Source of the DNA: a virus
Taxonomy: Duplodnaviria; Heunggongvirae; Uroviricota; Caudoviricetes
Virus record (IMG/VR): IMGVR_UViG_2802429237_000005
Coordinates: 1 to 17,227 of that record
DNA: 17,227 nucleotides
Reading direction: 5' to 3' (one strand)
The notes beneath the pieces were generated by a model, which did no database searches, was not told where the DNA came from, and was given only the letters and a program-made list of their open reading frames with translations. Within the stretch, counting starts at the first letter, position 1. Each line of letters begins with the position of its first letter. Of the stretch, positions 1 to 15,601 are shown piece by piece. The position numbers and the translations under genes are program-made.

Positions 1-342
1 CTACATACGACTCTGCTGCTTCTCCGTATGCACACGTTTGACTATCTTATAAATCCATTGCAGCGTCAGATTATATTTCTTCGCTAATTCGGCGTAGTTG
101 CGCCCATCGCACTCGCTATAGATTTGGTAGTCACGCTCCGATGCTCGTCCGGAGATCCCCTTAGGGAAATAAATGCTTTGCCCACCCCAGTTGCGCATCA
201 TTCGATCGGCAATGGCAAAACCCACATTTTCTGCCGATGAGCTGTCCAGATTAATGCTCTCAATCAGAACTTGCGATGCATGAAAAGCCAGGTCGTTAAT
301 GATCTCCGGTGTCCGGGCCATCTCTTTTGATTTTCGTATCAT
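1..342 (-). CDS. Mor/C-family transcriptional activator (Mu middle/late activator-like), 113 aa
   Basis: Complete minus-strand ORF with stop at 1-3 and start at 342. Size and C-terminal helix-turn-helix-like segment (GRNYAELAKKYNLTLQWIYKIVKR) fit the Mor/C activator family. GGAGA Shine-Dalgarno lies about 5 nt upstream of the ATG on the minus strand. Divergent from the lysis/tail operon. Confidence 0.7.
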   Translation of the reverse strand: MIRKSKEMARTPEIINDLAFHASQVLIESINLDSSSAENVGFAIADRMMRNWGGQSIYFPKGISGRASERDYQIYSECDGRNYAELAKKYNLTLQWIYKIVKRVHTEKQQSRM

Positions 343-565
343 TTTTCATCTCCATATATCTTGCATCCTGTATAAGACCCGATGCGTGTAAAACCACGGA
401 TATACGCTAAACAGTTGTTATTACTGTTACTCAATACATTCAACAAACAAATAAACAATTATCAGAAGTATAAAACTTTAATATCAATGAACTTCATAAA
501 TTCACAAAATAAATATATTGCTTGCGTTATGTTTCTTGCCAACAGGAGTACCATTTTACACGATG

Positions 566-581
566 CTGTATGTGTATACAG
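566..581. promoter_or_regulatory. LexA (SOS) box CTGTATGTGTATACAG in the divergent control region
   Basis: Read directly: tgCTGT-ATGTGTAT-ACAGta, a perfect CTGT-N8-ACAG palindrome with AT-rich centre and flanking T..A, matching the E. coli LexA consensus taCTGTatatatatACAGta. A TAAAAT -10-like hexamer on the minus strand (553-558) sits just downstream in the direction of the activator gene. Confidence 0.55.
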
Positions 582-879
582 TATTATTTTTACCTGTAGT
601 GTAAAAATAACGTTCTCCTCACAGTCGCTAAATTTCTTAAACAAACTTTAAAAATCAAATAACTATCGACTACCTCTACGATCCACCATCATCTTTCCCC
701 TGCATAATGACGCGCTTATTCTCCAGGTCAACTTTTACTCTTTTATTGATGGGGGGATTTATTAGCGGGCATGTTCATTTATAGAGAATCTATTTTTTAA
801 AGTTATTTATTAAAGCCTTTTTCATTCTTCACTGGAGGGTTCTGACGACACTAAACGCTCACTTATGAGGAGATATCGT

Positions 880-1167
880 ATGAAAAAAATCACATTTCCC
901 CGGCTTTCCGGTTGGCTGGCTGCAGCCATTGCTCTGATTGCATTGATCGGCTGGACCTCTTCAGCACAAATCCCGGTCGTCATTTATAAACTAAGCCTGG
1001 TTTCGCTTTCCGCAGTACTGGGATACTGGCTCGATCGCAGTTTGTTCCCCTGGGCACGACCTGACTCTTTTTCCCCCTGGAAGGAGCCGCGTTGCTGCGC
1101 GGCGGCAATGATTCGTCGGGCTATCATCGTTGCTGCCGTCTGCCTTTCCGTCGCGTTAGGGCTATAG
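880..1167 (+). CDS. holin-like small membrane protein with three predicted transmembrane segments
   Basis: ORF track 865-1167; the second in-frame ATG at 880 is preferred because GAGGA (867-871) lies 8 nt upstream. Three hydrophobic stretches (WLAAAIALIALIGW, LSLVSLSAVLGYWL, AIIVAAVCLSVALGL). Position immediately upstream of the endolysin. Function inferred from topology and context only. Confidence 0.55.
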   Translation: MKKITFPRLSGWLAAAIALIALIGWTSSAQIPVVIYKLSLVSLSAVLGYWLDRSLFPWARPDSFSPWKEPRCCAAAMIRRAIIVAAVCLSVALGL

Positions 1168-1169
1168 TG

Positions 1170-1775: not shown

Positions 1776-1787
1776 TCAGAGGGGCCG

Positions 1788-2141: not shown

Positions 2142-2231
2142 ATCTCCAGGAGCTTACATAAGTAAGTGACTGGGGTGAGCTAACGCAGACGCAGCACATG
2201 CAACTTGAAGTATGACGAGTATATTAAATAC

Positions 2232-2265
2232 ATCCCCACCTTTAGGTAAGCGTGGGGATTTTTAT
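2232..2265 (+). terminator. rho-independent terminator after the lysis cassette
   Basis: Inverted repeat ATCCCCAC (2232-2239) / GTGGGGAT (2252-2259) with a 12-nt loop, followed by TTTTTA (2260-2265). Confidence 0.6.
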
Positions 2266-2272
2266 AGTCATT

Positions 2273-2310
2273 CAATTTTTTCTCTAAATCACATTAAAAG
2301 ATTCTTCACC
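2273..2310 (+). promoter_or_regulatory. candidate activator-dependent promoter motif upstream of the tail-core genes
   Basis: CAAT-N7-CTAAATC-N4-TAAAAG block (2273-2300) repeated with identical spacing at 10832-10859, followed by ATTCTTCAC (2301-2309), which recurs at 824-832 upstream of the holin. Confidence 0.3.
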
Positions 2311-2372: not shown

Positions 2373-2828
2373 ATGAAAACTTTATCTGTAATGAATTATG
2401 TCGTGGTTAAATTACGTATTCGGCATCCTGAAATGGACATATTTATTTCATCTACGGACGCCCAAAAATATATTCCACAGACACAGCAAATTGCGGTGAT
2501 TATTAATTATAGCGGTTCTGTCTTTACCACGCCCGAAAGCAGTGATGCCATTGTGCAACAGCAAATACTCCGCTTAACCGCCACCGTTATTGTTGGCAAA
2601 AATTGTGACGCGTTAAACGCACTGGATCGCATACGCAGCACATTGGGTGGCCTTCAGCTTCCTGATTGCGATCGTCTTCTTTGGCTTGAAAAAGAAACTA
2701 ATACGGGTGAGAGCGGCGGTTTCTGCCGCTACATCCTGGAAATGGCGACCAGCTCGCTGTTTATCGCTGAACAGGAAAGCACGGATCTTCCCCTGCTTAC
2801 GGAAGTTAATTACGAGGAAACTGAATGA
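2373..2828 (+). CDS. hypothetical protein, 151 aa; placement suggests a tail completion/terminator-type protein
   Basis: Intact ORF, first gene after the terminator/promoter region, stop overlaps the next start (ATGA at 2825-2828). No motif I can assign with certainty; role inferred from its position before the sheath gene. Confidence 0.45.
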   Translation: MKTLSVMNYVVVKLRIRHPEMDIFISSTDAQKYIPQTQQIAVIINYSGSVFTTPESSDAIVQQQILRLTATVIVGKNCDALNALDRIRSTLGGLQLPDCDRLLWLEKETNTGESGGFCRYILEMATSSLFIAEQESTDLPLLTEVNYEETE

Positions 2829-3022
2829 AATACATCTACAACGGCCCGGCAAGCGGCGTCACCCTTGCCGACGGACAAGAAATCTTATTGTGGCCGAACA
2901 GTGAAATTGATCTGCCAGAAGACAACGAGTGGGTCATGACCATGATTGCCCGCAATCACCTGACTCCTGTCATCACTCAGGAAGAACAAAACAACGCAGA
3001 GGAAATTGTACATGGCAGCTAA
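2825..3022 (+). CDS. small conserved hypothetical protein, 65 aa, immediately upstream of the sheath gene
   Basis: Translationally coupled to flanking genes (ATGA overlap upstream, short overlap with the sheath start). Small acidic proteins in this position are common in Mu-like and P2-like tail clusters. Assignment by context. Confidence 0.45.
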   Translation: MKYIYNGPASGVTLADGQEILLWPNSEIDLPEDNEWVMTMIARNHLTPVITQEEQNNAEEIVHGS

Positions 3023-4436
3023 TTACCTGCACGGTGTAGAAACCATTGAAATTGAAACCGGCCCGCGTCCGGTTAAAGCGGTAAAATCCGCCGTCATCGC
3101 TTTAATCGGTACGGCCCCCTGTGGTCCGGTAAACAAACCAACATTATGCCTTTCTGAAAGCGATGCCGCGCAGTTTGGCGCAGGCATGGCTAACTTTACG
3201 ATCCCGCAAGCGCTGAAGGCAATTTATGACCACGGCGCCGGTACGGTGGTGGTGATTAACGTACTAGATCCGGCAAAACATGGCTCCAGCATCAGCAATG
3301 AGAGTATCACTTTTGATGCTAACAACCAGGCGAGACTCGCTCACCGCAATGTGCGTAACGTGGTACTAAAGCCCTCTTCATCAAATTCAACAACCTATAA
3401 CACCGCAGCATTTAGCGTAGATGAACAAACAGGCATAATTACCCGAAAAGGAGCCGACATTCCTCCTGGGGCAAAAGTTTGCGCCTATTATTCCTGGTGC
3501 GATCCTACAAAGGTTACCGCAGCCGATATTATCGGTGCCGTTAATACCGCAGGCGATCGCACGGGGATGAAACTGCTACAGGACACTTATAACCTGTATG
3601 GTTTCTACGCCAAAATCCTGCTTGCTCCCGTTTTCTGTACGCAAAAATCGGTGACTACTGAGCTAATTGCACAAGCGGAAAAACTCGGTGCTATCGCCTA
3701 CATTGACGCCCCAATCGGTACTACATTCCAGCAGGTGTTAGCTGGACGCGGTTCGCAAGGCGCAATCAACTTCAACACCAGCTCTGACCGTGCGCGTTTG
3801 TGCTATCCGCACGTCAAAGTTTATGACGGCGCAACCAACCAGGAAATTCTCGAACCGCTCTCTTCGCGCGCTGCCGGGCTGCGTGCCAAACTGGACGTGG
3901 AGAAAGGTTTCTGGTGGAGCAACTCAAACCAGGAAATTCAGGGTATTACCGGTATCGAACGTTCACTTTCCGCGATGATCGATGACCCGCAAAGTGAAGT
4001 GAATCAGCTCAACGAAAACGGCATTACCACTATTTTCAATAGTTACGGCTCTGGTCTGCGTTTATGGGGCAACCGCACTGCAGCATGGCCGACCGTGACC
4101 CATATGCGTAACTTTGAGAACGTTCGCCGCACGGGTGATGTGATTAACGAGTCGATCCGCTATTTCAGCCAACAGTATATTGATATGCCTATTAATCAGG
4201 CACTTATTGACGCGCTAACCGAATCGGTAAATACCTGGGGCCGAAAACTGATTGCCGACGGCGCACTGCTTGGCTTTGAGTGCTGGTACGATCCGGCGAG
4301 AAATTCACCGACTGAACTCAGCGCCGGGCATTTATTGCTGAGCTATAAATTCACCCCGCCGCCGCCGCTGGAACGTCTGACGTTTGAAACTGAAATTACT
4401 TCTGAATACTTAGTCTCTCTGGAGAGCAATAGCTAA
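3012..4436 (+). CDS. contractile tail sheath protein (P2 FI / Mu L-like)
   Basis: N-terminus MAANYLHGVETIEIETGPRPV and C-terminus CWYDPARNSPTELSAGHLLLSYKFTPPPPLERLTFETEI resemble recalled P2 FI sheath termini (xYHHGVQVLEI... and ...YIDYDYTPVPPLENLT...). ATG at 3012 preferred over the track's TTG at 3006; GAGGA lies upstream. Length of about 474 aa is typical. Confidence 0.9.
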   Translation: MAANYLHGVETIEIETGPRPVKAVKSAVIALIGTAPCGPVNKPTLCLSESDAAQFGAGMANFTIPQALKAIYDHGAGTVVVINVLDPAKHGSSISNESITFDANNQARLAHRNVRNVVLKPSSSNSTTYNTAAFSVDEQTGIITRKGADIPPGAKVCAYYSWCDPTKVTAADIIGAVNTAGDRTGMKLLQDTYNLYGFYAKILLAPVFCTQKSVTTELIAQAEKLGAIAYIDAPIGTTFQQVLAGRGSQGAINFNTSSDRARLCYPHVKVYDGATNQEILEPLSSRAAGLRAKLDVEKGFWWSNSNQEIQGITGIERSLSAMIDDPQSEVNQLNENGITTIFNSYGSGLRLWGNRTAAWPTVTHMRNFENVRRTGDVINESIRYFSQQYIDMPINQALIDALTESVNTWGRKLIADGALLGFECWYDPARNSPTELSAGHLLLSYKFTPPPPLERLTFETEITSEYLVSLESNS

Positions 4437-4960
4437 TGGCTGGAAAAATTCAAATTAATCGTATTACCAATGCCAATATTTATCTCGATGGTAATAACCT
4501 TTTAGGTCGTGCAACCGAAATTAAATTGCCGGATGTCAGTTTAATTATGCAAGAGCATAAGGCACTGGGCATGGTGGGTAAAATCGAACTCCCGGCTGGT
4601 TTCGATAAACTGGAGGGGGAAATTAAATGGAACTCCTTTTATCATGACGTCATGCGTAAAACGGCAAATCCGTGGCAGGCGGTAGCATTACAGTGCCGCT
4701 CCAGCATTGATTGCTATAACTCCCAGGGGAAAGCGAATCAATTAGCATTAGTGACACATTTAACCGTGATGTTTAAAAAGAATCCACTGGGCACATTTAA
4801 ACAGAATGAAAACCCGGAATTCAGCAGCGCCTTTGGCTGCACTTATATTAAACAAGTAGTCGATGGCGAAACACTGCTGGAACTGGATTACCTGGCGAAT
4901 ATTTTCCGCGTTAACGGCGTGGATCAATTAAGTACCTATCGCAATAACATCGGTGGTTAA
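4436..4960 (+). CDS. tail tube protein (P2 FII-like)
   Basis: ATG overlaps the sheath stop (TAATG). C-terminal motif VNGVDQLSTYRNNIGG matches the conserved end of P2-type tube proteins (recalled VNGVDRLEQHRRNIGL). Size 174 aa. Confidence 0.9.
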   Translation: MAGKIQINRITNANIYLDGNNLLGRATEIKLPDVSLIMQEHKALGMVGKIELPAGFDKLEGEIKWNSFYHDVMRKTANPWQAVALQCRSSIDCYNSQGKANQLALVTHLTVMFKKNPLGTFKQNENPEFSSAFGCTYIKQVVDGETLLELDYLANIFRVNGVDQLSTYRNNIGG

Positions 4961-5010: not shown

Positions 5011-5328
5011 ATGACAGAACACTATATCTTACAGTTTCCGTTTACTTCAGCGGCGGGAGACGTAATTAACACTCTGCAATTACGTCGCCTGAAAGTAAAA
5101 GATATGCGCAACGCACGCCGAATCAGCGAAAAGCCAGAAGAATGGGATGAACCGCTGATGGCGGCGATGACCGGACTGGTGCCGGAAGATTTAGCTGAAA
5201 TGGATTTGCTGGATTACCAGGCGTTGCAGAAACGATTTCAATCCATGCTTAGCGTGGCTACAGAATCCTCCCTTGCTATGGCAGGCAATGGCGCTACTGG
5301 CGAGATGGTTTCGCTTTCCGCCCAGTGA
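5011..5328 (+). CDS. tail assembly chaperone (P2 gpE-like position)
   Basis: 105-aa acidic ORF between tube and tape-measure genes, AAGGAT Shine-Dalgarno at 5000-5005. Followed by a 188-nt gap in which the +1 frame stays open to 5416, the expected arrangement for a frameshift-extended chaperone. Confidence 0.75.
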   Translation: MTEHYILQFPFTSAAGDVINTLQLRRLKVKDMRNARRISEKPEEWDEPLMAAMTGLVPEDLAEMDLLDYQALQKRFQSMLSVATESSLAMAGNGATGEMVSLSAQ

Positions 5329-5402
5329 GATCGACGCGCTCACAATAGATGACTTTAGCAACTGGCTGGATGAAGCCAGCGCTCAAATAAAGATCGAATA
5401 TG

Positions 5403-5433
5403 ACTCGCAGACCTGATGTCTGCGAGTTCTTTA
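5403..5433 (+). terminator. hairpin with T-rich tail between chaperone and tape-measure genes (attenuator/terminator candidate)
   Basis: ACTCGCAGAC (5403-5412) / GTCTGCGAGT (5418-5427) form a 10-bp perfect stem with loop CTGAT, followed by TCTTTA. The stop codon of the +1-frame extension (TGA 5414-5416) lies in the loop. Confidence 0.4.
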
Positions 5434-5516: not shown

Positions 5517-7892
5517 TTGGCCAACGATATTATTACCCTGCTTCAGACGCGTAATGAGACGTTGACGCAGGCAATAGCCCGTTACGGCTCACTCAACGCC
5601 AGAACATTGTTAGCTCTCTCTTCTCAGCAAGCGACAGTAATCAAACTAACGCAGCAACTTGCCGATTCTGCTCTCCGCCTGGAGGAAAATAGCCGGAACC
5701 GCGCTGATCTGATGGAGAAAACCCAAACATTTGCCGGGCAATTTAACAAGGTATTCAATGTTGAAGCCCCTGACTGGAAGTTGCCGTATGAGTTTCAGGA
5801 CAACATGGTCAATATAGCGACCAAAGGTGGGATGAATGATACAACCAGCGTGACGCTCAGCCTTAACCTGCGCGACTGGAGCATGGATTTTAACCAGCAG
5901 CAGACCACATTACAGAACGCAGCCCAAACGCTGATCGAAGGCAATTTGTCGTCGTTGCAGGATCTCAACCGTTATATGCCGGAGATCGCCAAAGCTGCCA
6001 CCGCCACACGCGAAAGTGCTGAAACATGGGCGAATGCCGCGCTCACAACTCATGATCGCCTGAATATTGCGCCAGAAAATTTCCACGCCGCGCAAAACAT
6101 GATGTACGACATTAGCAAAAGCGGTGGGCCTGCCGTTGCCGAGCAAACGCAGTGGATAGACAAATTTGCAGGTAAAACGGGTGCGCAAGGTTTAGAAGGT
6201 ATGGCTGAACTGACCGCCACAATGCAGATCGCCATGAAAAACGGTGCCAGCGCCAGTGCGGCGGCGGAGAATTTCGACCACTTTCTGCAAACCACCTTTT
6301 CGAAAAAAACCGATAACTGGTTCGCCAGCCAGGGCGTCGATCTGCAAGGCTCTCTGCTTGAACATCAGCAAAACGGCATGGGTGTTAGCGAAGCCATGAC
6401 TCATATCGTGCAAATGCAGCTTGAGAAGATGAATCCGGCGATCCTCGGCACCTTCAAACGCACCATGCAGATTGAGGATTTATCTGCTCGCGGCAATGCA
6501 CTGCAATCGATGGTGACGCAATTTAATCTGGGTGAAATGTTCGGCGATGCACAAACTGTGGAATTCCTGGCTCCTATGTTGGCGAATATGGAAGAGTATC
6601 GCCAGTTAAAAACTTCCGCCATGCAAGCCAGCAGCAAGAATCTGATTGACTCCGACTTTTCTGCGCAGATGGCCTCGCCTATTGAACAGACTAAAGCGTT
6701 ACAGCTGGCGTTAAATGATTTATGGCTCAGCATTGGCTTGCAATTAATGCCGCTGATTGGCGAGCTGGCGCAAAGCCTTACGCCAGTGATTCGCCAGTTC
6801 AGCGCCTGGATACGTGAACACCCGGCGCTGGTGCAAAACATTGCGAAAATCGTCGGGGCGATTTGGCTGTTTAACGGCGCACTGAATGTTTTAAAGCTGG
6901 GCGCGAACTTCATCGCCTCGCCGTTTATTCGTCTGGTCGATATCTTCCTGAAAGTCAGGGCAAGTCTGGCGCTCACAGGCGCAGCGAGTAAGGTACTATC
7001 GGCGGTTAAGTCATTGGGTGGCGGCGCAAAATGGCTATCGCTACTGCTTGGTCGTGGCCTAATCGGAGCATTGAAACTGGTTGGTTTAACCGTTCTCTCG
7101 CTAGGCCGGGTGTTATTGATGAATCCCATTGGTCTGGTCATCACTGCGATTGCGGGCGCCGCTTATCTGATTTATCGCAACTGGGAGCCTATCTCAAGGT
7201 TCTTTTCGACCATCTGGCAACGTATCACCACGGCCTTTGACGGTGGCATTGCAGGAATTTGCCGGTTGATTCTCGACTGGTCGCCGCTGGAGTTGTTCTA
7301 TAGCGCCTTTTCCAGTGTGATGAATTGGTTTGGCGTTGAGATGCCAGCGAGTTTTAGCGAGTTCGGCAGCAATCTTCTGGGCAGTCTGGTTGACGGCATA
7401 ATGAATGCCTTCCCCGCTCTGAAAGGCATTATTGATCAGGTCAAAAACGTCTTACCGGACTGGCTAAAAACCACGATGGGTATTAGCACAGAAGGATCGG
7501 CTACGGCTGTTACAAGCACGACGAATACCGCATCCGTCTCCCCCGCAACCGTTGTTCCAGGCGTTGCCGGTGCAATTTTAACACCTCTGGTGGGCAAACA
7601 ACTCGCGCCCCCCAGCAAAACGACAACGCCGCCATCGGCACCAGCGGCAAAAAATACAGCCACCAACCCCGCATCGGCTTCTTTACCTGGTAAATCCGTA
7701 ACCAAACCGGCGACGCTACCTTCCCGTTCCTCAGGAAAAGTTCAGGTGAATTTTTCGCCACAAATTACCGTGCAGGGTAACGGACAAAACACCACTAAAG
7801 ACATTCAGAACGTGTTGACGATGAGTAAACGCGAACTGGAAAGAATGATTAACGACGTAATGGCGCAACAACAGCGCCGGGGGTATGCCTGA
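5517..7892 (+). CDS. tail tape measure protein
   Basis: 791-aa ORF directly after the chaperone, the longest gene in the cluster. Internal hydrophobic segment (LIGALKLVGLTVLSLGRVLLMNPIGLVITAIAGAAYLIY) and Thr/Pro/Ala/Ser-rich C-terminal region. TTG start at 5517 is the first start codon after an in-frame stop at 5478-5480; the start is uncertain. Confidence 0.85.
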   Translation: MANDIITLLQTRNETLTQAIARYGSLNARTLLALSSQQATVIKLTQQLADSALRLEENSRNRADLMEKTQTFAGQFNKVFNVEAPDWKLPYEFQDNMVNIATKGGMNDTTSVTLSLNLRDWSMDFNQQQTTLQNAAQTLIEGNLSSLQDLNRYMPEIAKAATATRESAETWANAALTTHDRLNIAPENFHAAQNMMYDISKSGGPAVAEQTQWIDKFAGKTGAQGLEGMAELTATMQIAMKNGASASAAAENFDHFLQTTFSKKTDNWFASQGVDLQGSLLEHQQNGMGVSEAMTHIVQMQLEKMNPAILGTFKRTMQIEDLSARGNALQSMVTQFNLGEMFGDAQTVEFLAPMLANMEEYRQLKTSAMQASSKNLIDSDFSAQMASPIEQTKALQLALNDLWLSIGLQLMPLIGELAQSLTPVIRQFSAWIREHPALVQNIAKIVGAIWLFNGALNVLKLGANFIASPFIRLVDIFLKVRASLALTGAASKVLSAVKSLGGGAKWLSLLLGRGLIGALKLVGLTVLSLGRVLLMNPIGLVITAIAGAAYLIYRNWEPISRFFSTIWQRITTAFDGGIAGICRLILDWSPLELFYSAFSSVMNWFGVEMPASFSEFGSNLLGSLVDGIMNAFPALKGIIDQVKNVLPDWLKTTMGISTEGSATAVTSTTNTASVSPATVVPGVAGAILTPLVGKQLAPPSKTTTPPSAPAAKNTATNPASASLPGKSVTKPATLPSRSSGKVQVNFSPQITVQGNGQNTTKDIQNVLTMSKRELERMINDVMAQQQRRGYA

Positions 7893-8845: not shown

Positions 8846-9054
8846 TGCGATACCTTGAACATATCACCACCGACGGCGAACGCTGGGATAATCTGGCATG
8901 GCATTACTACGGCGATGCGCTGGCTTATGAACGTATTATCGCCGCCAATCCACATGTCGCCATTTACCCGGTACTGCCTTCCGGTATTCAGCTCATTATT
9001 CCGGTCATTTCCGTCAACAAAACCTTATCGGAGATCCCACCATGGCTGAGATAA
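8845..9054 (+). CDS. tail protein X (P2 gpX-like)
   Basis: 69-aa protein with a ...WHYYGD...IIAANP... pattern resembling recalled P2 gpX (...RYYGR...VLAANP...). GAGGAG Shine-Dalgarno at 8833-8838. ATG at 8845 preferred over GTG at 8842. Confidence 0.8.
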   Translation: MRYLEHITTDGERWDNLAWHYYGDALAYERIIAANPHVAIYPVLPSGIQLIIPVISVNKTLSEIPPWLR

Positions 9055-10082
9055 GCGTATCTGGTGGCGTCTTTGCCACGCTTGCGCCCATTTTTACCCT
9101 CTGGTATGGGCATAAAGATATCACTTATGACATCACGCCCTATGTCACCAGCATCAGTTACCACGACAGCATCAAAAACGAGTCGGATACCATCGCGATT
9201 ACCCTGGATGATACCGATGGACGCTGGATAAAAGAGTGGTATCCCGGCAAAGGCGATACGCTGGCGCTGCATATGGGTTATCAGGGGGAGAAGCTTCTCG
9301 ATTGCGGTCAGTATATTATTGATAAAATTGATATTTCAGCGCCACCTTCCACGGTAAATATTGATGGCATCGCCACTTCCGTCAATCAGGCGCTGCGCAC
9401 CCGTAACAGCCAGGGTTTTGAAGAAACGACGCTTTCGGCTATTGCCAGCCGTATCGCGCAAACTCACGGTCTGAAGCTGGTGGGCAAAATCGAACCGCTG
9501 ACGATTGACCGGGTGACACAGTATGGCGAAACCGATGTCGGATTTCTCAAGCGTCTGGCCAGTGAATATGGCTATGCCGTAAAAGTGACGACAAAAGAGC
9601 TTATTTTTTCACATCTGCCGACGTTACGCTGCCTGGCGCCAGTGAAAAGCATCGACCGCAAAGAGGTTTCCCACTTCACCTTCAAAGACACCATTAATCG
9701 CATCTACAAGAACGCCACCGTACAACATCAAAACAGTAAGAAAAAAGAGTTGGTTATCTACACACATGACAGCCAGCAAAAACCGTCCGCCCGTGGAGCA
9801 GGCACCAGTGCCGACACGTTAAAACTCAATAGCCGGGCGCCGGACGTTGGCGCGGCACAGGCAAAGGCCAACGCTGCACTCAACAGCCACAACGAATATC
9901 AGCAAACCGGAACGCTAAAGATGATGGGCTGCCCGGAACTGACGGCAGGCAATAAAATCGAGCTAACCGATTTTGGTGTGCTTTCCGGTCAGTGGCTGAT
10001 TGATAAATCTACTCACAGTTTTGTGCGCAGCGGCTATACCACTGAAATCGACGTTTCGCGCGGGCCAGCGACCAGCCAGTAA
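9042..10082 (+). CDS. baseplate hub / late control gene D protein (P2 gpD-like)
   Basis: 346-aa ORF with patterns matching recalled gpD: GDTLALHMGY, TTLSAIASRIAQTHGLKL, GETDVGFLKRLASEYGYAV. Position directly after gpX. Confidence 0.85.
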   Translation: MAEISVSGGVFATLAPIFTLWYGHKDITYDITPYVTSISYHDSIKNESDTIAITLDDTDGRWIKEWYPGKGDTLALHMGYQGEKLLDCGQYIIDKIDISAPPSTVNIDGIATSVNQALRTRNSQGFEETTLSAIASRIAQTHGLKLVGKIEPLTIDRVTQYGETDVGFLKRLASEYGYAVKVTTKELIFSHLPTLRCLAPVKSIDRKEVSHFTFKDTINRIYKNATVQHQNSKKKELVIYTHDSQQKPSARGAGTSADTLKLNSRAPDVGAAQAKANAALNSHNEYQQTGTLKMMGCPELTAGNKIELTDFGVLSGQWLIDKSTHSFVRSGYTTEIDVSRGPATSQ

Positions 10083-10091: not shown

Positions 10092-10793
10092 ATGAAAGGA
10101 GTAACCCGGCAAACGGGGATTATCAGCGATATTGACGAAACCAGCGTTCGGGTGCGGGTCACGCTGCCAGAGTGTGACAATCTGAAGAGCAACTGGCTTG
10201 CGGTACTTCAACGCAATTCCCAGGACAATAAAGACTACTGGCTACCGGATATGGGCGAGCAAGTGGAAGTTCTGCTGGACGATAACGGTGAAGATGGCGT
10301 GGTGCTGGGCGCAGTTTATTCTACGGTTGACACCGCGCCAGTGGCCTCGCGCGACAAACGTTACGTCCAGTTTTCTGATGGCGCAGCGTTTGAATATGAC
10401 CGCAGCACCCACCAACTTACGATTAACGGCGGTATCGAGAAAATCGTGATTGAGGTTATCGACAGTACCCGCCTGACATCGCCCAACATTGAGATTAAAG
10501 CCCAACAGGTCAGCGTGACTTCCGATACCGTCGATGTTAAAGCGACCGATGTCAACATCGACGCCACTGAGGTCAATGTTAAAGCGGCAGCAGTGACGGT
10601 AGATGCGCCCATAAGTACCTTTACTGGTAACGTCACGGTAATGAAAAAACTCACCTGGCTTGGCGGGATGGCAGGAAGTGGAGGCATCGGTAACGCCGCC
10701 ACGATAACCGGCAATGTCAACGTGATCGGCAACGTTCAGGCCAGCGGCACATTGCAGGACAGCGGAGGCAACTCAAACCACCATTCACACTAA
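10092..10793 (+). CDS. baseplate central spike (P2 gpV-like)
   Basis: AAGGAGG Shine-Dalgarno before the ATG. N-terminal OB-fold-like region, repetitive V/T/D-rich beta-helical segment (VTSDTVDVKATDVNIDATEVNVKAAAVTVDA) and C-terminal His cluster NSNHHSH, consistent with the metal-binding apex of P2-type spikes. Confidence 0.85.
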   Translation: MKGVTRQTGIISDIDETSVRVRVTLPECDNLKSNWLAVLQRNSQDNKDYWLPDMGEQVEVLLDDNGEDGVVLGAVYSTVDTAPVASRDKRYVQFSDGAAFEYDRSTHQLTINGGIEKIVIEVIDSTRLTSPNIEIKAQQVSVTSDTVDVKATDVNIDATEVNVKAAAVTVDAPISTFTGNVTVMKKLTWLGGMAGSGGIGNAATITGNVNVIGNVQASGTLQDSGGNSNHHSH

Positions 10794-10799
10794 CTTTTA

Positions 10800-10828
10800 A
10801 CCCGCCTGATGGCGGGTTTTCTCTTTTT
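10800..10828 (+). terminator. rho-independent terminator between spike and baseplate-wedge genes
   Basis: ACCCGCC (10800-10806) / GGCGGGT (10811-10817) with loop TGAT, followed by TTTCTCTTTTT. Confidence 0.65.
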
Positions 10829-10831
10829 AAT

Positions 10832-10859
10832 CAATCAGTTTTCTAAATCGCTTTAATAT
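10832..10859 (+). promoter_or_regulatory. candidate activator-dependent promoter motif upstream of gpW
   Basis: CAAT-N7-CTAAATC-N4-TAATAT with the same internal spacing as the block at 2273-2300. Lies between the terminator and the gpW start codon. Confidence 0.3.
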
Positions 10860-10891
10860 CGCCACTGCCCGTTCAGGGCGAAAATACCCTC

Positions 10892-11251
10892 ATGAACACA
10901 AAAACAAGACCCTCAACGCTGCACTGGCAACCAGCCTTGCAGCGGCCTGAAGAATACGTCTGCGGGCAGGATGATATTCACCAGGCAATACACATCATTC
11001 TGCGTACACCGCGCGGCAGTGATCCCCACAGACCGCTGTTTGGCAGCAACTTGTGGCACTACATCGATTACCCCATCGAGCGGGCAATCCCGCATGTGGT
11101 ACGGGAGTCGGTGGAAGCCATCCGCCAGTGGGAACCGCGATGCCGGTTGCTGAAGGTGACACCAGTAATCGACGGTGAACATCTGACGTTACGTGTGCAA
11201 TGGCGCGCCGCTGACGGTGTTATCAACTCAACGGAGGTGTTATGGCGATAG
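10892..11251 (+). CDS. baseplate wedge protein (P2 gpW / GPW_gp25 family)
   Basis: 119 aa. Pattern DDIHQAIHIILRTPRGSDPHRPLFGSNLW...AIRQWEPR matches the gpW/gp25 family (recalled P2 W: ...IGDILRTPVGSRVMRRDYGS...VLKWEPR). Confidence 0.85.
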   Translation: MNTKTRPSTLHWQPALQRPEEYVCGQDDIHQAIHIILRTPRGSDPHRPLFGSNLWHYIDYPIERAIPHVVRESVEAIRQWEPRCRLLKVTPVIDGEHLTLRVQWRAADGVINSTEVLWR

Positions 11252-12357
11252 CCGAACCCAATTTTATTGACCGCGATCCTGCGCAAATTACCAGTGAGAT
11301 GATTGCGCAATACGAAGATGCCAGCGGTAAAAAACTCTACCCGGCACAGGCCGAGCGGTTGCTTATCGACCTGTTTGCCTATCGTGAAAACCTTGTACGC
11401 ATCGCCATTCAGGAAGCGGCGAAACAAAACCTGGTCGCGTATTCCCGCGCGCCAATGCTGGATTATTTAGGTGAACTGGTGGGCGTTCACCGTTTACCTG
11501 CACAACCGGCAAAAACGACGTTGCAGTTTTCGGTCGTCAGTACATATGCCAGCAATATCCTGATTCCCCAGGGGACGCGGGCCAGTGCCTCTGATAGCGT
11601 GATGTTCGCCACCGATGAAGATGTTCTGCTTCCGGCGGGAAGTTTGCATATCGCCGTTCCTGCCACCAGCCTCGCAACAGGTGAACAGGGTAACGGCTGG
11701 CAGCCTGCACAAATTAGCGCACTTGTCGACAGGATTGGTCATTATGACATCAACGTAACCAACCTGACTGCGTCAACGGGCGGCTGCGGTGAGGAGAGCG
11801 ATGAGGCATTGCGCCAGCGTATCCAACTGGCACCAGAAAGCTTCAGCAATGCAGGCAGCTATGGCGCATACCGCTTTCATACGCTTTCTGTTAGCCAGTC
11901 GATTATTGACGTTGCAGTACTGGGACCAGATGAGGGGTTGCCAGAAGGCTGCGTGGAGATCTACCCGCTAACGCTGAATGGCCTGCCGGGCGTGGAACTG
12001 CTCGTGCAAATCGAACAGGAAGTTAGCAAGGAGAAAAAACGTCCGCTGACCGACAAAGTGAGTGCGAAATGCGCTCTTCGAGTACCGTATGAGATCCGTG
12101 CGCAGCTAACGCTGTTTACCACCGCCGATCAGGAGACAACGCTGGCTGCGGCGCGTAAAGCGATTAGCCTCTGGACGCAACAGCGGCAGAAACATCTGGG
12201 ACAGGACATTGTGCCAAACCAGATAATCAAAGTGTTACAGGTCAATGGCGTCTATGACGTTGTGCTGAACTTGCCTACAAAACGCATTTTGCAGGCACAT
12301 GAGTGGGCGGAATGCACCGCAATAGACGTCACGATTGCCGGAGTCAGCGATGGATAA
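11242..12357 (+). CDS. baseplate protein J (P2 gpJ-like)
   Basis: 371 aa, GGAGG Shine-Dalgarno before the ATG, 10-nt overlap with gpW. Conserved position and size; N-terminal region resembles the baseplate J family. Confidence 0.85.
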   Translation: MAIAEPNFIDRDPAQITSEMIAQYEDASGKKLYPAQAERLLIDLFAYRENLVRIAIQEAAKQNLVAYSRAPMLDYLGELVGVHRLPAQPAKTTLQFSVVSTYASNILIPQGTRASASDSVMFATDEDVLLPAGSLHIAVPATSLATGEQGNGWQPAQISALVDRIGHYDINVTNLTASTGGCGEESDEALRQRIQLAPESFSNAGSYGAYRFHTLSVSQSIIDVAVLGPDEGLPEGCVEIYPLTLNGLPGVELLVQIEQEVSKEKKRPLTDKVSAKCALRVPYEIRAQLTLFTTADQETTLAAARKAISLWTQQRQKHLGQDIVPNQIIKVLQVNGVYDVVLNLPTKRILQAHEWAECTAIDVTIAGVSDG

Positions 12358-12982
12358 ATTGCTGCCGCCACCGCCGCTTGCCAGCGATGAGCGTTTTTCG
12401 ATTCTGGCAAATATCGCCGCCGAGCGTTTTGCCCAACTCGATCTGACGGCGTTGATGGTTTATCTGGTCGACCTGGTTGATGCTTCGGCTTTGCCTACGC
12501 TTGCAGAACAATTTCACGTTCAGGGGCTGGAAGGTTGGTTATTTACCACCGATGAGCGGGAGAAGCGCGAGTTAATTAAGCAAGCCATTGAGCTGCATAA
12601 ATATAAAGGAACAATTTGGGCGGTACGGCAGGTACTGGAAATACTCTCGCTACCCGGAACTATTTCCGAATGGTTTGAATATGGCGGGAAGGCTTATTTT
12701 TTTAAGGTTGATATAGAGCTGGTGGATAAAGGCATGGATGAAAACCTTTTCAATAATCTGGTAGAACTCATTCATGAATATAAAAACACACGTTCAAAAC
12801 TGGAAGCATTAATTGTCTGGATCATTAACCAAAGTGCTATTCCTGTTATTGGTTGTGCACTTTATGGTGGTGAACTGACGACGGTTTTACCTTTCCAGAT
12901 AAGGGAAGTACAGCAAAACACATCAATTTATTACGGAACAGGGCAATGGAGCCTTGAAATTACATCTATTTACCCGGAGTGA
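12350..12982 (+). CDS. baseplate/tail protein I (P2 gpI-like)
   Basis: ATG at 12350 with GGAG at 12340-12343 preferred over the track's TTG at 12335. Motif HKYKGTIWAVRQVLE resembles recalled P2 gpI (HCHKGTIGAIRRVVE). Confidence 0.8.
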   Translation: MDKLLPPPPLASDERFSILANIAAERFAQLDLTALMVYLVDLVDASALPTLAEQFHVQGLEGWLFTTDEREKRELIKQAIELHKYKGTIWAVRQVLEILSLPGTISEWFEYGGKAYFFKVDIELVDKGMDENLFNNLVELIHEYKNTRSKLEALIVWIINQSAIPVIGCALYGGELTTVLPFQIREVQQNTSIYYGTGQWSLEITSIYPE

Positions 12983-12984
12983 TT

Positions 12985-14466
12985 ATGGATAATGAGTTTT
13001 ATACTCTGCTCACCAGCAGGGGGATGGCAAAAATTGCCAATGCCCTTGCAAATAAAAAACAGCTTCATCTACAAAAGATGGCCATTGGAGACGGCGGTGG
13101 GCAATATTATGAACCCACCGTCAGCCAAACTAAATTACGTCACGAAGTATGGCGTGGCGATTTAAATACATTAACCGTTGCGCCCAATAATCCTAACTGG
13201 TTAATTGCGGAACTTGTACTGCCCGAAAATATCGGTGGCTGGTATGTACGTGAAGTCGGTGTTTTTGATACTGACGGTGAACTCATTGCTATCGGTAAAT
13301 TCCCTGAGTCGTATAAACCGCTATTACCCGGCGGCAGCGGTAAGCAAGTTTGCATTCGTCTTATTATGGAAGTTTCCAATACGGCAGCGGTAACACTCAC
13401 CGTTGACCCCAGTATTGTGCTGGCAACGCGCGATTACGTCGATTCGCAACTGGATGAACATGAACGTTCAACTAATCATCCTGATGCTACGTTATCGCAA
13501 AAAGGCTTTACGCAGTTGAGTAACTCCACTGACAGCGATGACGAAACCAAAGCGGCTACGCCCAAAGCGGTGAAAGCAGCGATGATTGAAGCTCGAAATC
13601 ATCGTCATACCTGGAGTCAGATTACTGATATTCCGGATGGCACGCTGGCGCAAAAAGGGATCGTGAAGCTTAATAACGCGACCAATAGTACCAGCACGAC
13701 AGAGGCGGCGACACCGAGCGCGGTCAAGGCGGCGTATGACCTGGCGAATGGTAAGGCTGCGGGAAACCATACTCACCCATGGGGGCAGATTACGGGTGTT
13801 CCAGACGGCACCCTGTCGCAAAAAGGGATTGTGACGCTTAATAACGCGACGGATAGCACCAGTACGACTGAGGCGGCGACGCCTAGTGCGGTGAAGGCGG
13901 CGTATGACTTGGCGAATGGTAAGGCTGCGGGTAGTCATACGCACCCCTGGGGGCAGATTACCAATATTCCCGACGCAACTCTTGGTAAGAAAGGAATTGT
14001 TCAGCTAAGCAGTACCGTCCCTAATACCAGTACAACAGAAGCAGCAACGCCATACTCAGTTAAGGTTGCCTATGACCTTGCGAACACTAAAGCTCCGGCA
14101 AGCCATACTCATCCATGGAATCAAATTACTGGTATCCCGGACGGTACGCTGACGCAAAAAGGGATTGTGAAGCTTAATAACACAACAAACAGCACCAGTA
14201 CAACAGAGGCGGCGACACCCAGTGCGGTGAAGGCTGCGATGGACAAAGCAAATACAGCTTTGAATAACACCACTGCATCTATATCAGATGTCAGACTGGG
14301 TGCTAAATTTGATCAGGTTATGGCAAAAGGGGGGCGCTATGAATTTCCTGGTAATGTTCTGACTGGGTTGAGAATTATCGGAGAAGTGGATGGAGATGAT
14401 CTCGCTATATTTCGCCCACTTCAGATAAAGGTTAGAGGTTCTTGGTATACGGTAGGACAACTTTAA
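12985..14466 (+). CDS. tail fiber protein (P2 gpH-like N-terminal domain, tandem-repeat shaft, conserved C-terminal domain)
   Basis: ATG at 12985 with GGAG upstream (track start is GTG at 12979). N-terminal region (...MAIGDGGG...HEVWRGDLN...IAELVLPENIGGWYVREVGVFD...YKPLLPGGSGKQ...) matches the P2 H-type fiber N-terminus. Five tandem repeats of the ATPKAVKAAxDLAN type. C-terminus GLRIIGEVDGDD...FRP. Confidence 0.9.
   Translation: MDNEFYTLLTSRGMAKIANALANKKQLHLQKMAIGDGGGQYYEPTVSQTKLRHEVWRGDLNTLTVAPNNPNWLIAELVLPENIGGWYVREVGVFDTDGELIAIGKFPESYKPLLPGGSGKQVCIRLIMEVSNTAAVTLTVDPSIVLATRDYVDSQLDEHERSTNHPDATLSQKGFTQLSNSTDSDDETKAATPKAVKAAMIEARNHRHTWSQITDIPDGTLAQKGIVKLNNATNSTSTTEAATPSAVKAAYDLANGKAAGNHTHPWGQITGVPDGTLSQKGIVTLNNATDSTSTTEAATPSAVKAAYDLANGKAAGSHTHPWGQITNIPDATLGKKGIVQLSSTVPNTSTTEAATPYSVKVAYDLANTKAPASHTHPWNQITGIPDGTLTQKGIVKLNNTTNSTSTTEAATPSAVKAAMDKANTALNNTTASISDVRLGAKFDQVMAKGGRYEFPGNVLTGLRIIGEVDGDDLAIFRPLQIKVRGSWYTVGQL
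13477..14247 (+). repeat. five in-frame tandem repeats (153-168 nt; 51-56 aa) in the tail fiber shaft
   Basis: The unit TL(S/A/T)QKGIVxLNNxTxSTSTTEAATPSAVKAAYDLANGKAAGxHTHPWxQITxIPDG recurs five times; the nucleotide period measured between CAAAAAGGGAT copies is 153, 168, 168, 168 nt. Confidence 0.85.
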
Positions 14467-15119
14467 TGGAATATAAAAATTTCACACTCTATAAACCGGC
14501 AGAAAGTATTGGTGGTATTTTTTATCTAAAATCTGATGACGATGTTGATTGGTACGAGGCACAAAAAAAATTTTCTGCCGAAACGTTAAAAATTGCTTAT
14601 GACAGCACAGGTAGAATTTGCATTGCGGATACTGATGCATCAGCGATTTGGCCAATAAATTCATCTATCAGTGAGATCTCATCTGAGAATGTTCCTGATG
14701 ATTTTTCAACAAATGGGAAATGGTTCTGGAATGGCGAAACGATAATCAATGCTGTAACAATCGTAACTGCTAAAAAAAATAAAATGGAGGATATCAAAAA
14801 TCGACGAGATGAAATAACGGCAGACTACATCATCATCAACGACCATCACTTCCACAGTGATACCAGCAGCCGAATCCAACAGATCTCGCTCACTAAAATG
14901 GGTAAGGAGAAACAAATTCCGCCAGGTTTAATGTGGAAAACTAAAAATAACGGTCTGATTGAGTTAACCAACGAAATCGCCGCGCAGTTTGAATCCGTCA
15001 CCATGGATCACGATATGCGCTTATTCGCCAACGCCCAACGTCATATCGCGGCGGTGGAAGCTCTGGACGATATTCAGGCGGTGCTCGATTACGATTACTC
15101 CACAGGCTGGCAACCATGA
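14466..15119 (+). CDS. tail fiber assembly protein (P2 gpG-like chaperone)
   Basis: ATG at 14466 overlaps the fiber stop (TAATG); the track start at 14442 lies inside the fiber gene. Pattern DWYEAQKKFSAETLKIAYDSTGRICI resembles recalled P2 gpG ([26 protein letters not shown]). AT-rich N-terminal part is typical of exchangeable fiber/chaperone cassettes. Confidence 0.8.
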   Translation: MEYKNFTLYKPAESIGGIFYLKSDDDVDWYEAQKKFSAETLKIAYDSTGRICIADTDASAIWPINSSISEISSENVPDDFSTNGKWFWNGETIINAVTIVTAKKNKMEDIKNRRDEITADYIIINDHHFHSDTSSRIQQISLTKMGKEKQIPPGLMWKTKNNGLIELTNEIAAQFESVTMDHDMRLFANAQRHIAAVEALDDIQAVLDYDYSTGWQP

Positions 15120-15571
15120 GTAAAACCACTGTCTGGCTCGCTTGTTATAAGGGCCGAACAGAGCACCGCGGTATTGCCCGACTGGCTGACTGGCTTACCC
15201 GTAAGATCACACGCGGTAGTTATTCCCACTGTGAATTAGCCGTTAAGCATGGTGAAAAGAGTTACCTTTGTTACTCCGCATCCCTACGCGATCGCGGCGT
15301 ACGCGGAAAGATAATGCCATTACCGCCAGATAAGTGGGATATGCTGCCACTTAACTCCAGCCTTCAGGACGTTGAAGCTTTTTTCCATAAACATGATGGC
15401 AAAAAATATGACTGGCGCGGCGCGCTTGGAATTATCACCGGCAATAAAGAACAGCGCGATCGCCTGTTTTGCAGTGAATTTTGTGCTGAATTCCTGCAAT
15501 TAAAAGATAGTTGGCGATACTCACCAAATCACCTGTATGCCTTAGTAAGTAACTGGCAATCCCATCCGTAA
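15116..15571 (+). CDS. hypothetical 151-aa protein, last gene of the tail operon; tentative permuted papain-fold (NlpC/P60 / LRAT / YiiX-like) signature
   Basis: ATGA start/stop overlap with the assembly-protein gene implies translational coupling. N-terminal His motif (TEHRGIA) and C-terminal Cys motif (LFCSEFCAEF) about 100 residues apart, an order and spacing reminiscent of LRAT/YiiX-type enzymes. The fold assignment is a motif-level guess. Confidence 0.6.
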   Translation: MSKTTVWLACYKGRTEHRGIARLADWLTRKITRGSYSHCELAVKHGEKSYLCYSASLRDRGVRGKIMPLPPDKWDMLPLNSSLQDVEAFFHKHDGKKYDWRGALGIITGNKEQRDRLFCSEFCAEFLQLKDSWRYSPNHLYALVSNWQSHP

Positions 15572-15576
15572 ATAAC

Positions 15577-15601
15577 ACCGGGCACAGTGCCCGGTTCCTT
15601 A
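15577..15601 (+). terminator. stem-loop/terminator at the end of the tail operon
   Basis: Perfect palindrome ACCGGGCAC-A-GTGCCCGGT (15577-15595) followed by TCCTTATAT. Downstream sequence turns AT-rich and lacks long ORFs. Confidence 0.5.

Follow-up and report, generated by a model that had tools for sequence, protein, structure and literature searches.

A headless BcepMu-like tail cluster beside lysC in Escherichia is a probable R-type tailocin locus

R-type tailocins of natural origin have been studied in depth in Pseudomonas, Pectobacterium, Burkholderia and Xenorhabdus. The R-type pyocins, such as R2 of P. aeruginosa, resemble the locus described here in combining a headless contractile tail of P2-family proteins with a lysis cassette, and they are induced by DNA damage; unlike it, they follow the P2 gene order, with baseplate and fibre first, and are regulated by PrtR/PrtN rather than by a LexA box and Mor. 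The nearest experimentally proven tailocin is carotovoricin Er (Ctv) of Pectobacterium. Ctv control is said to have been traced by Liu and Chatterjee in 1994 to a RecA–RdgA–RdgB pathway in which RdgB is Mor-like. Yamada 2006 is cited as giving Ctv and a Salmonella Typhi prophage a common ancestor, and Hockett 2015 (summarised in PMC4684702) describes R-syringacin (Rp4) of Pseudomonas syringae as a Mu-like myophage tail co-opted independently. R-syringacin, a precedent for such co-option, differs from our locus in belonging to an SfV/Mu-like lineage and to Pseudomonas.

Here we analysed a stretch of 17,227 nucleotides (the window) held as viral record IMGVR_UViG_2802429237_000005. With one mismatch, it corresponds to positions 960–18186 of a 151-kb Escherichia contig, and its host is an Escherichia other than typical E. 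coli. The island in the window has inserted between lysC and yjbD/rluF, with Mor starting about 60 bp beyond the end of lysC; downstream of the island follow, in order, a GT4 glycosyltransferase, an RlaP nucleotidyltransferase, yjbD and rluF. In one island-free E. coli, lysC and yjbD are 252 bp apart. The initial annotation, which had proposed a candidate R-type tailocin, named contiguous head genes beforehand as its refutation; we ran this check, and neither flank (lysC on one side, GT4–RlaP–yjbD–rluF on the other) carries capsid, portal, terminase, integrase or transposase genes. Pfam and PHROGs searches agreed with its further statement that the window is devoid of capsid, portal, terminase, protease, integrase, transposase and replication genes, as no ORF matched any such family. 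No att-like direct repeats bounding the island were found in a repeat search of a 21-kb contig segment, and the window yielded no RNA families (Rfam, gathering threshold) and no tRNA (ARAGORN). The full contractile-tail set, the lysis cassette and the Mor/C-type activator that had been read from the letters were all recovered as intact genes with Pfam or PHROGs family matches, the tail genes on the + strand and Mor on the − strand.

Mor, a Mor/C-family late transcription activator of 113 aa (1–342, − strand; PF08765, E = 2e-37; phrog_532, E = 4e-35), is identical in 100% of its amino acids to the E. coli island copy and in 91% to Salmonella STM4219. All genes, hairpins and promoter-like elements given below lie on the + strand. 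The lysis cassette for release consists of a 95-aa holin with three hydrophobic segments by hydropathy (880–1167; PF13272, E = 4e-26; phrog_1528, E = 9e-35), an SLT-domain endolysin (lytic transglycosylase; 1170–1775; PF01464, E = 1e-14; phrog_669, E = 5e-62) whose N-terminus forms a hydrophobic signal/SAR-like segment by hydropathy, and an i-spanin-like membrane protein (1788–2141; phrog_462, E = 7e-34) with an N-terminal transmembrane helix and a coiled coil. The final 13 codons of this last gene derive from an inserted ERIC-like repeat, and its counterpart in E. coli PSJ-42 is annotated as a 104-aa membrane protein; because the repeat rewrites the C-terminus, lysis from the island in the window may be impaired. 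A search of the window for an embedded or adjacent o-spanin/lipoprotein ORF found none. An 89-aa ORF at 382–651 was rejected as a gene, being AT-rich, of low complexity, poorly conserved, unannotated in relatives and free of family matches, and overlapping the operator described below.

The tail module begins with a terminator of the Mu gp37 family, which caps tube and sheath as a hexamer (2373–2828; PF09646, E = 6e-33; PDB 2GJV, E = 1e-55, six chains). 2GJV has been cited as a hexameric tail terminator, and in Mu the terminator role falls to gp37 and that of head adaptor to gp36 (PMC11915804). Next comes a conserved 65-aa tail-module protein (2825–3022; phrog_895, E = 2e-35), which holds the identical position in PhiKM and all relatives and has a dN/dS of 0.07–0.08. 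The initial annotation had placed only two small ORFs between lysis and sheath: both exist, but both are these tail genes, and they are preceded by the third lysis-cassette gene (1788–2141). The sheath (3012–4436; PF04984, PF17482), the P2 FII-family tube (4436–4960; PF04985, E = 6e-56) and the assembly chaperone E (5011–5328; PF10109, E = 4e-18) follow. A frameshift extension, E′, stays open in the +1 frame to 5416 (5011–5416 with E) and matches PF06528 (GpE, E = 9e-4) over profile positions 4–35 of 37; its peptide LLARWFRFxPSEID... is kept in all relatives, complete phages included. Beyond it lie a 791-aa tape measure protein (5517–7892; PF10145, E = 5e-11), annotated as such in its E. coli and Salmonella counterparts, a gpU-like tube initiator extended at its C-terminus by a coiled coil (7892–8845; PF06995, E = 6e-34), gpX (8845–9054; PF05489, E = 2e-23), the baseplate hub gpD (9042–10082; PF05954, E = 7e-11), the spike gpV (10092–10793; PF04717, E = 1e-7) and the baseplate wedge proteins gpW (10892–11251; PF04965), gpJ (11242–12357; PF04865, E = 5e-62) and gpI (12350–12982; PF09684, E = 9e-34). 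The same components have been resolved in the tail of Mu.

The 493-aa tail fibre (12985–14466; PF12571 and five PF03406 matches, E = 1e-78) carries four 56-aa repeats, visible as 168-nt repeats in the DNA, and a divergent C-terminal tip. Both its C-terminus and its length differ from those of the E. coli PSJ-42 fibre (608 aa), and its final 45–70 residues have no close phage match. Between islands that are otherwise 94% identical, the tip has been swapped together with the fibre assembly chaperone (DUF4376; 14466–15119; PF14301, E = 2e-13; Caudo_TAP, E = 0.0024; phrog_136, E = 1e-29), a pattern expected of a specificity module. No fibre invertase was found in the window. The last conserved gene, orf151 (15116–15571), encodes a 151-aa protein with a YiiX-like permuted NlpC/P60 cysteine hydrolase fold, and a GC-rich hairpin (15577–15595) closes the conserved cluster at about 15583–15596, in line with the end at 15601 drawn initially. 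PADLOC matched no defence system to the GT4, RlaP and orf151 proteins of the window, nor to the slipin and nucleotidyltransferase found in the E. coli island.

By gene content and order, this cluster is a BcepMu-like (Bcepmuvirus) late region from which two blocks have been removed, one being the entire set of early genes that separates Mor from the lysis genes, the other the head module from the small terminase through the head–tail adaptor. The window is colinear, gene by gene, with Escherichia phage PhiKM (PQ738613; Bcepmuvirus) and nine complete prophages, and the edge of the head deletion falls exactly at the boundary between the adaptor (gp36) and the terminator (gp37). Lysis and tail genes are ordered identically in PhiKM, which also has a Mor-family regulator, the +1-frame E′ and the late-promoter motifs; its proteins are identical at 73% for the sheath, 75% for the tube, 68% for X, 67% for W, 59% for D and 57% for J. 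Unlike the window, PhiKM has an early block between Mor and lysis, with transposase, MuB, gam and GemA among its genes, and a head block between lysis and gp37 made up of TerS, TerL, portal, F, G, protease/scaffold, major capsid protein and adaptor genes; tblastn with the PhiKM transposase, MuB, gam, GemA, TerS, TerL, portal, F, G, protease, major capsid and adaptor proteins found no match in the window or its orthologs. Bcepmuvirus architecture also accounts for the initially noted coexistence of a Mu-like gene order with P2-like proteins.

Ctv shows the same kind of reduction, its headless BcepMu-type layout running from holin, SLT endolysin and membrane protein to a gp37-like terminator and through the fibres. 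Its tail order (sheath, tube, E, tape measure, U, X, D, V, W, J, I, fibres) is that of the window, its sheath and tube are 75–76% identical, and P_I-like and P_W-like promoter motifs are shared. However, Ctv occupies a different site (tolC_2–ybiB rather than lysC–yjbD), lacks an adjacent Mor, shows no LexA box in the 900 bp preceding its holin and retains an additional lysis gene, for a lipoprotein, that has no counterpart in the window. In a concatenated neighbour-joining tree (200 bootstrap replicates), Ctv and head-bearing phages formed a group, with 100% support, that left out the window clade; each of the two clades was itself recovered at 100%, and a grouping of the window with Ctv appeared in 0 of 200 bootstraps. 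Membership of the carotovoricin lineage was therefore rejected, given the different locus and the lack of monophyly, and the placement of Ctv among head-bearing phages indicates that the two lineages were domesticated independently.

Further analysis of the intergenic regions revealed a predicted SOS operator between Mor and the holin. This LexA box, CTGTATGTGTATACAG (566–581, site 555–583), matches CTGT-N8-ACAG exactly and overlaps a σ70-like promoter found by promoter scan on the + strand (TTTACA-16-TACAGT, 555–582); its invariant bases can also be read on the − strand as a −10 element, TAAAAT, facing Mor. The promoter under SOS control may read toward Mor, the lysis genes or both, as with the LexA box shared by uvrA and ssb. 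The box and CATTTTACAC are unchanged in all six orthologous Mor–holin spacers from four genera, the rest of the spacer being poorly conserved, and the Salmonella copy, TACTGTATATATATACAGTT, agrees with the consensus at 19 of 20 positions. Since LexA-like matches within the window alone are no more numerous than expected by chance, the case for the SOS box rests on this conservation. No LexA box lies upstream of the holin in PhiKM, Ctv or the Brenneria loci, and a BLAST search of the spacer against phages matched only a Salmonella genome contig. The invariant LexA box among these islands, as a predicted operator, is a new finding, and so are the three conserved late-promoter-like elements described next.

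Three late-promoter-like elements accompany this operator. The element of the lysis operon (793–851) consists of TTTTTTAAAGTTATTTATTAAAG at 793–815, a conserved TTCTTC and a GAYACT −10-like hexamer; it is invariant across four genera and unique in the window, with no occurrence expected by chance. Behind the lysis cassette, an intrinsic terminator (2233–2262; CCCCAC...GTGGGG and a T run), maintained by compensatory changes in Salmonella, Superficieibacter and Phytobacter, precedes the element of the first tail operon (2276–2326), in which TTTTTTCTCTAAATCACATTAAAAG is followed after 20 nt by CAGAAT. That element is kept in all headless relatives, and in complete BcepMu-like prophages its motif precedes the protease/scaffold gene, where Mu has P_I. 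A terminator hairpin found by terminator scan (10799–10818) separates gpV from the third element (10839–10885), which comprises TTTTCTAAATCGCTTTAATATC (10839–10860), 19 nt and GAAAAT (10880–10885), 6 nt ahead of the gpW ATG; its CTTTAATATC core and −10-like hexamer are conserved in 11 of 11 aligned relatives, complete phages included. Two of the three elements are thus common to complete phages, and both terminators between the operons are conserved. Together with a Mor-family protein, three conserved elements at the positions expected for lysis and morphogenesis promoters suggest, on sequence grounds, Mor-dependent transcription.

Headless islands adjoining lysC, at the pgi–lysC site, occur in E. 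coli, Salmonella, two Superficieibacter species and Phytobacter. Only 40 of 5,426 complete E. coli genomes carry the island, a rarity that marks it as often dispensable. Across four genera, the 20 genes are without exception intact and free of stop codons, and all have dN/dS values of 0.02–0.28 against the three other genera at a dS of about 1–2.5; by this measure, all 20 are under purifying selection. Flanking host genes have a comparable dS (0.85–1.9), which argues that selection acted during the headless state. The fastest-evolving protein is gp37, with the highest dN/dS and 38–60% identity between genera compared with about 80% for its neighbours.

The Salmonella island, ‘Def4’ (STM4198–STM4219 in LT2), is orthologous, sharing the lysC–yjbD site, gene order, SOS box and late-promoter elements, with proteins 60–95% identical to those of the window; it differs in cargo, with a gtrABC operon for O-antigen glucosylation lodged between gpV and gpW and other genes behind those of the fibre. 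For its sheath, STM4213, both protein (PMC5797601) and mRNA induction (PMC3405474) have been reported, and its fibre gene STM4200 is in use as a serovar PCR marker. The Salmonella literature labels Def4 only as a prophage remnant, and in the literature searched for Escherichia and Salmonella we found no published tailocin at a lysC-linked locus. The E. coli ST131 ‘tailocin’ paper was set aside as a prior description because it concerns another, P2-ordered prophage, as was BceTMilo, which is P2/KL3-like. Tailocins of this kind are known; the lineage shared by the window and Def4 is a new, uncharacterised member.

The headless state kept at one locus in four genera, strong purifying selection, the conserved SOS box and the late promoters argue for function over decay and, as sequence evidence, support the R-type architecture first proposed. 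That the island is instead an inert, decaying remnant that makes no particle, its tail genes persisting for want of time to decay, would accord with the label given to the Salmonella ortholog, the lack of the island in over 99% of complete E. coli genomes, the ERIC-like change to one lysis gene and the missing o-spanin. Yet neutral decay over a dS of about 1 or more would give stops and frameshifts, whereas the 20 ORFs are intact at low dN/dS with synonymous sites saturated; regulatory elements are invariant within divergent spacers, and the deletions are precise at functional boundaries, making this reading unlikely.

We consider it more improbable still that the island donates tails to capsids of a co-resident BcepMu-like prophage or a capsid-forming satellite, yielding infectious or transducing particles. 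The terminator gp37, the head-docking surface in Mu, has been kept, and complete PhiKM-type prophages are common in E. coli (PhiKM head genes in 717 of 5,426 genomes), but the rapid evolution of gp37 is consistent with a lost head-docking constraint, none of five orthologous islands has head genes nearby, and an island with its own lysis cassette and SOS switch needs no helper. Least probable, to the point of receiving hardly any credence, is an Afp/PVC-like extracellular contractile injection system or effector delivery to eukaryotic cells: no ORF encodes an AAA+ ATPase, an Afp/PVC-type cap or ruler, or toxin cargo, the proteins all belong to P2/Mu phage-tail families, the fibres and the lysis cassette are of phage type, and the closest kinship is with temperate phages and a bacteriocin.

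The window therefore probably holds a domesticated BcepMu-like prophage, reduced to an R-type tailocin locus and fixed between lysC and yjbD; with a complete tail, a lysis kit, a DNA-damage switch and no head, DNA-free killing particles are its most likely product. In such a system, DNA damage would activate RecA and lead to LexA cleavage, and loss of LexA would derepress the promoter overlapped by the SOS box at 566–581, so that Mor is made. Mor would then switch on three late promoters, serving the lysis operon, gp37 to gpV, and gpW to the fibre, chaperone and orf151. Tails would assemble on the baseplate to a length set by the 791-aa tape measure and be capped by a gp37 hexamer with no head to dock, and holin, endolysin and spanin would lyse the producer to release them. 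The fibre tip would bind a surface receptor on related bacteria, probably LPS, and sheath contraction would drive tube and spike through the envelope, causing death by membrane depolarisation. A more far-reaching history is possible, though we hold it only tentatively: an ancient tailocin that predates the split of Escherichia, Salmonella, Superficieibacter and Phytobacter, was kept or lost by lineage, exchanged between Escherichia species, domesticated independently of carotovoricin and rewired from a phage repressor to direct LexA control of the Mor cascade, with Def4 functional and the LPS-modifying cargo self-protective.

If functional, the island would give the best-studied enterobacteria a precision weapon of their own, triggered by the SOS response and affecting gut competition, and the Def4 region, long annotated as junk, would be reinterpreted as an overlooked working weapon of a model organism. 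Its naturally swappable fibre tips could also make it a scaffold for engineered antibacterials. The window lineage, carotovoricin, the Brenneria loci and the Chromobacterium loci appear to have arisen separately as four headless derivatives of a single phage family, offering a system in which to study repeated phage-to-weapon conversion and regulatory rewiring. Finally, LPS-modifying cargo travels with the island, as gtrABC in the Salmonella copy and as the GT4 glycosyltransferase in the window.

We searched the ORFs of the window against Pfam and PHROGs, the profile comparison that the initial annotation had proposed, and each component that it had assigned was recognised: the complete tail gene set, the holin and endolysin, and the Mor-type activator. 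The Mor gene lies alone on the minus strand (1–342) and is followed by an uninterrupted series of plus-strand ORFs up to 15571; all ORFs from Mor to 15571 were matched. The matches comprised a Mor-family activator, a Holin_2-3 holin and an SLT-domain endolysin; the tail-shaft proteins Gp37, sheath, FII-type tube, E-type tail assembly chaperone and tape measure; the baseplate proteins gpU, X, D, V, W, J and I; and a fibre with a collar domain and five fibre repeats, accompanied by a DUF4376/Caudo_TAP fibre chaperone. Families for capsid, portal, terminase, protease, integrase, transposase and replication proteins matched no ORF of the window. The two small ORFs noted earlier between lysis and sheath are both tail genes. 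Gp37 matched PDB 2GJV (E=1e-55, six chains), which is cited as a tail terminator and crystallized as a hexamer. In phage Mu itself, tube and sheath are capped by a hexameric terminator made of gp37, and the role of head-to-tail adaptor falls to gp36 (PMC11915804).

Tracing gpD to public contigs placed the window, with one mismatch, at positions 960–18186 of a 151-kb contig at NCBI. On the upstream side, about 60 bp separate the end of lysC from the Mor stop codon; on the downstream side follow a glycosyltransferase gene, which closes the window, and then genes for an RlaP nucleotidyltransferase, yjbD, rluF and ccdAB. The search for head genes contiguous with the cluster, whose presence the initial annotation had named as a refutation, was therefore negative on both sides, which supports its reading as a candidate R-type tailocin. 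In E. coli without the island the lysC–yjbD spacer is only 252 bp, and its right 156 bp still adjoin yjbD in the island-bearing contig. The host is Escherichia, though not typical E. coli; the island proteins are labelled MULTISPECIES [Escherichia], the nearest cluster member of the fibre comes from Escherichia sp. B1147, and rluF and yjbD differ from those of E. coli at a dS of 0.4–0.5.

Variable cargo of low GC content (38%) occupies 15600–17227 of the window and 17044–19209 of L002 (the locus spanning the lysC 3′ end, the island and the downstream flank), within the same insertion. Here it encodes a GT4 glycosyltransferase (PF00534 and PF20706, 'GT4-conflict') and the RlaP nucleotidyltransferase; the island of E. 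coli PSJ-42 instead carries a slipin gene and a nucleotidyltransferase, and in the Salmonella copy gtrABC is inserted between gpV and gpW, that is, inside the tail cluster. PADLOC returned no defence-system matches for GT4, RlaP or the slipin and nucleotidyltransferase of PSJ-42. The cargo (GT4/RlaP, or gtrABC in Salmonella) may modify LPS for self-protection.

Among phages in GenBank, the closest is the Escherichia Bcepmuvirus PhiKM. Its first arm runs from holin, SLT, lipoprotein and membrane protein through TerS, TerL, portal, F, G, protease/scaffold, major capsid protein, a small protein and the adaptor gp36 to a gp37-like protein, an 84-aa protein, sheath, tube, E, tape measure, U, X, D, V, W, J, I and fibre; the second arm holds early genes, transposase, MuB, gam and GemA, with Mor at its end. 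The window equals such a genome minus two blocks, the interval from Mor to the lysis promoter region and that from TerS to the adaptor, and the endpoint of the head deletion coincides exactly with the functional boundary between head and tail. This layout explains the Mu-like gene order and P2-like proteins that had been remarked on initially. PhiKM-type head genes were also found in 717 of 5,426 complete E. coli genomes, mostly at ≥95% identity; many of these strains are labelled ST131/O25b:H4.

A scan with the sheath protein, taking one genome per species and classifying loci by tblastn, yielded five groups of related loci. Loci with the layout of the window (Mor, lysis, gp37, tail) occur in E. 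coli, Salmonella, two Superficieibacter species and Phytobacter, and adjoin pgi–lysC in every case. The Pectobacterium/Samsonia type is headless and lies directly after a TolC-like gene, which is where carotovoricin has been placed in the literature (between tolC_2 and ybiB; PMC13195805). The Brenneria type (loci L015 and L016) lacks the head module and retains transposase and MuB; at the B. izbisi junction, what appear to be the first codons of the protease/scaffold gene are left over. In the Chromobacterium type (loci L028–L030), gp37 and sheath directly follow Mor, with no lysis genes between; like the Brenneria type, it too descends from this phage family and is headless. The fifth group consists of complete prophages with heads from many genera. 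E. coli seldom carries the island, which is present in 40 of the 5,426 complete genomes (query coverage at least 80%, 93–94% identity). The Salmonella copy corresponds to LT2 locus tags STM4198–STM4219, an element named the Def4 prophage remnant (PMC5322425).

Whether the window lineage and carotovoricin, a proven R-type tailocin, descend from a single domestication was addressed with a distance-based neighbour-joining tree of concatenated sheath, tube, X, D, W and J proteins (1,587 columns, 200 bootstraps). The window clade and the carotovoricin clade were each supported at 100%, as was the split that unites carotovoricin, head-bearing phages and Brenneria to the exclusion of the window clade; a grouping of the window with carotovoricin appeared in 0 of 200 replicates. 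On locus and phylogeny alike, the window thus falls outside the carotovoricin lineage. Unless heads were regained, the tree argues for independent domestications of one phage family, the cluster belonging to a lineage so far uncharacterised. Tailocins as such are already known.

All 20 genes are intact when the window is compared with the Salmonella, Superficieibacter and Phytobacter islands (dN/dS 0.02–0.28, synonymous divergence about 1–2.5), and the flanking host genes have a similar dS of 0.85–1.9; purifying selection has therefore acted on the headless set over a period roughly equal to the divergence time of these genera. The fastest-evolving protein is gp37 (2373–2828), with 38–60% identity between genera and dN/dS of 0.13–0.28; its neighbours, a 65-aa protein and the sheath, retain about 80%. 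This divergence fits release from docking to a head, the alternative being replacement of the module. Comparison of the window with the E. coli islands gives a dS of only 0.08–0.42, lower than in adjacent host genes (0.4–1.0), and transfer or recombination between Escherichia species must therefore have occurred later than the species split. Otherwise near-identical, these islands differ in the fibre C-terminus and the chaperone, as expected for a putative specificity cassette. The region around the island is of mosaic ancestry: the end of lysC (L002 1–898) has a dS of 1.03 to E. coli, as distant as Salmonella, compared with 0.4–0.5 for rluF/yjbD and 0.08–0.42 for island genes. The cluster, shared at the same site, has neither integrase nor transposase.

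The 537-bp Mor–holin spacer is poorly conserved overall and contains two invariant islands. The first, CATTTTACAC-NN-T-N-CTGTAT-NNNN-ATACAGT, includes an exact match to the LexA box at 566–581 (Salmonella version, TACTGTATATATATACAGTT), which overlaps a promoter-like TTTACA-16-TACAGT and is present in 6/6 islands of the window clade. In the 900 bp preceding the holin gene, PhiKM, seven carotovoricin-type loci (six Pectobacterium and one Samsonia) and the Brenneria loci contain no LexA box. The invariant flank may be the −35 element of a rightward promoter or, on the opposite strand, the −10 element TAAAAT of a leftward promoter towards Mor. The second invariant island (793–815) precedes the holin ATG by 65–87 bp. 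Another two conserved elements, which consist in order of a T-run, CTAAA, a TTAA(A/T)A core, 19–20 nt and a −10-like hexamer, are late-promoter-like on conservation only. One (2276–2326) lies upstream of gp37, after a terminator hairpin kept through compensatory changes; in complete prophages, the same motif precedes the protease/scaffold gene, the position of Mu P_I. The other (10839–10885) lies upstream of gpW, follows a strong terminator (10799–10818) and is conserved in 11/11 aligned relatives, complete phages included. Three conserved promoter-like elements would therefore define three putative late units (lysis; gp37 to gpV; gpW to orf151, the last gene of the cluster, 15116–15571), resembling the C-dependent late promoter set of Mu. 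The regulatory cascade would run from LexA to Mor to the late promoters. Carotovoricin is controlled by RdgA/RdgB; in contrast, the window has an adjacent Mor gene and LexA box.

Together, these results support a system that would work like an R-type tailocin, with carotovoricin as its closest proven analogue; from the 791-aa tape measure, its tails would be roughly 120 nm long. Def4 is orthologous to the window island, and no account of it as a tailocin was found in the full-text literature searched. For the Salmonella copy, functional hints are limited to the sheath ortholog STM4213, whose protein was found in an infection proteome (PMC5797601) and whose mRNA rises about six-fold with indole (PMC3405474). 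A conserved, SOS-wired tailocin candidate in Escherichia and the LT2 'remnant' would be useful and can be tested directly.

The lysis cassette includes a third gene (1788–2141) encoding an N-terminal transmembrane helix and a coiled coil, features suggesting an i-spanin-like product. No o-spanin or lipoprotein ORF was found in any frame of 1170–2372, and the 216-aa lipoprotein gene that PhiKM and carotovoricin carry between SLT and membrane protein is missing throughout the window clade. An ERIC-like dispersed repeat (2097–2228) overlies the 3′ end of the i-spanin-like ORF; its insertion lengthened the ORF from 104 to 117 aa and rewrote the C-terminal end in the window copy. The repeat has several matches in each E. 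coli genome, is missing from the PSJ-42 island, and contains the ERIC2 primer sequence AAGTAAGTGACTGGGGTGAGC.

A plus-strand ORF of 89 aa (382–651) spanning the SOS box region is probably not a gene, having no family match, low complexity, weak conservation and no annotation in relatives. The tail assembly chaperone E has an extension, E′ (5195–5416), that remains open to 5416, matches the P2 GpE family and is kept in every relative examined. It lies in frame +1 (or −2) relative to E, as in all BcepMu-like relatives, across which the nucleotide motif CTGGCGAGRTGGTTTCG accompanies this frame; the P2 chaperone extension, by contrast, uses the −1 frame. The holin gene (998–1013) and the E/E′ overlap (5306–5321) share an exact 16-nt direct repeat, TGGTTTCGCTTTCCGC, possibly by chance (about 0.05 expected).
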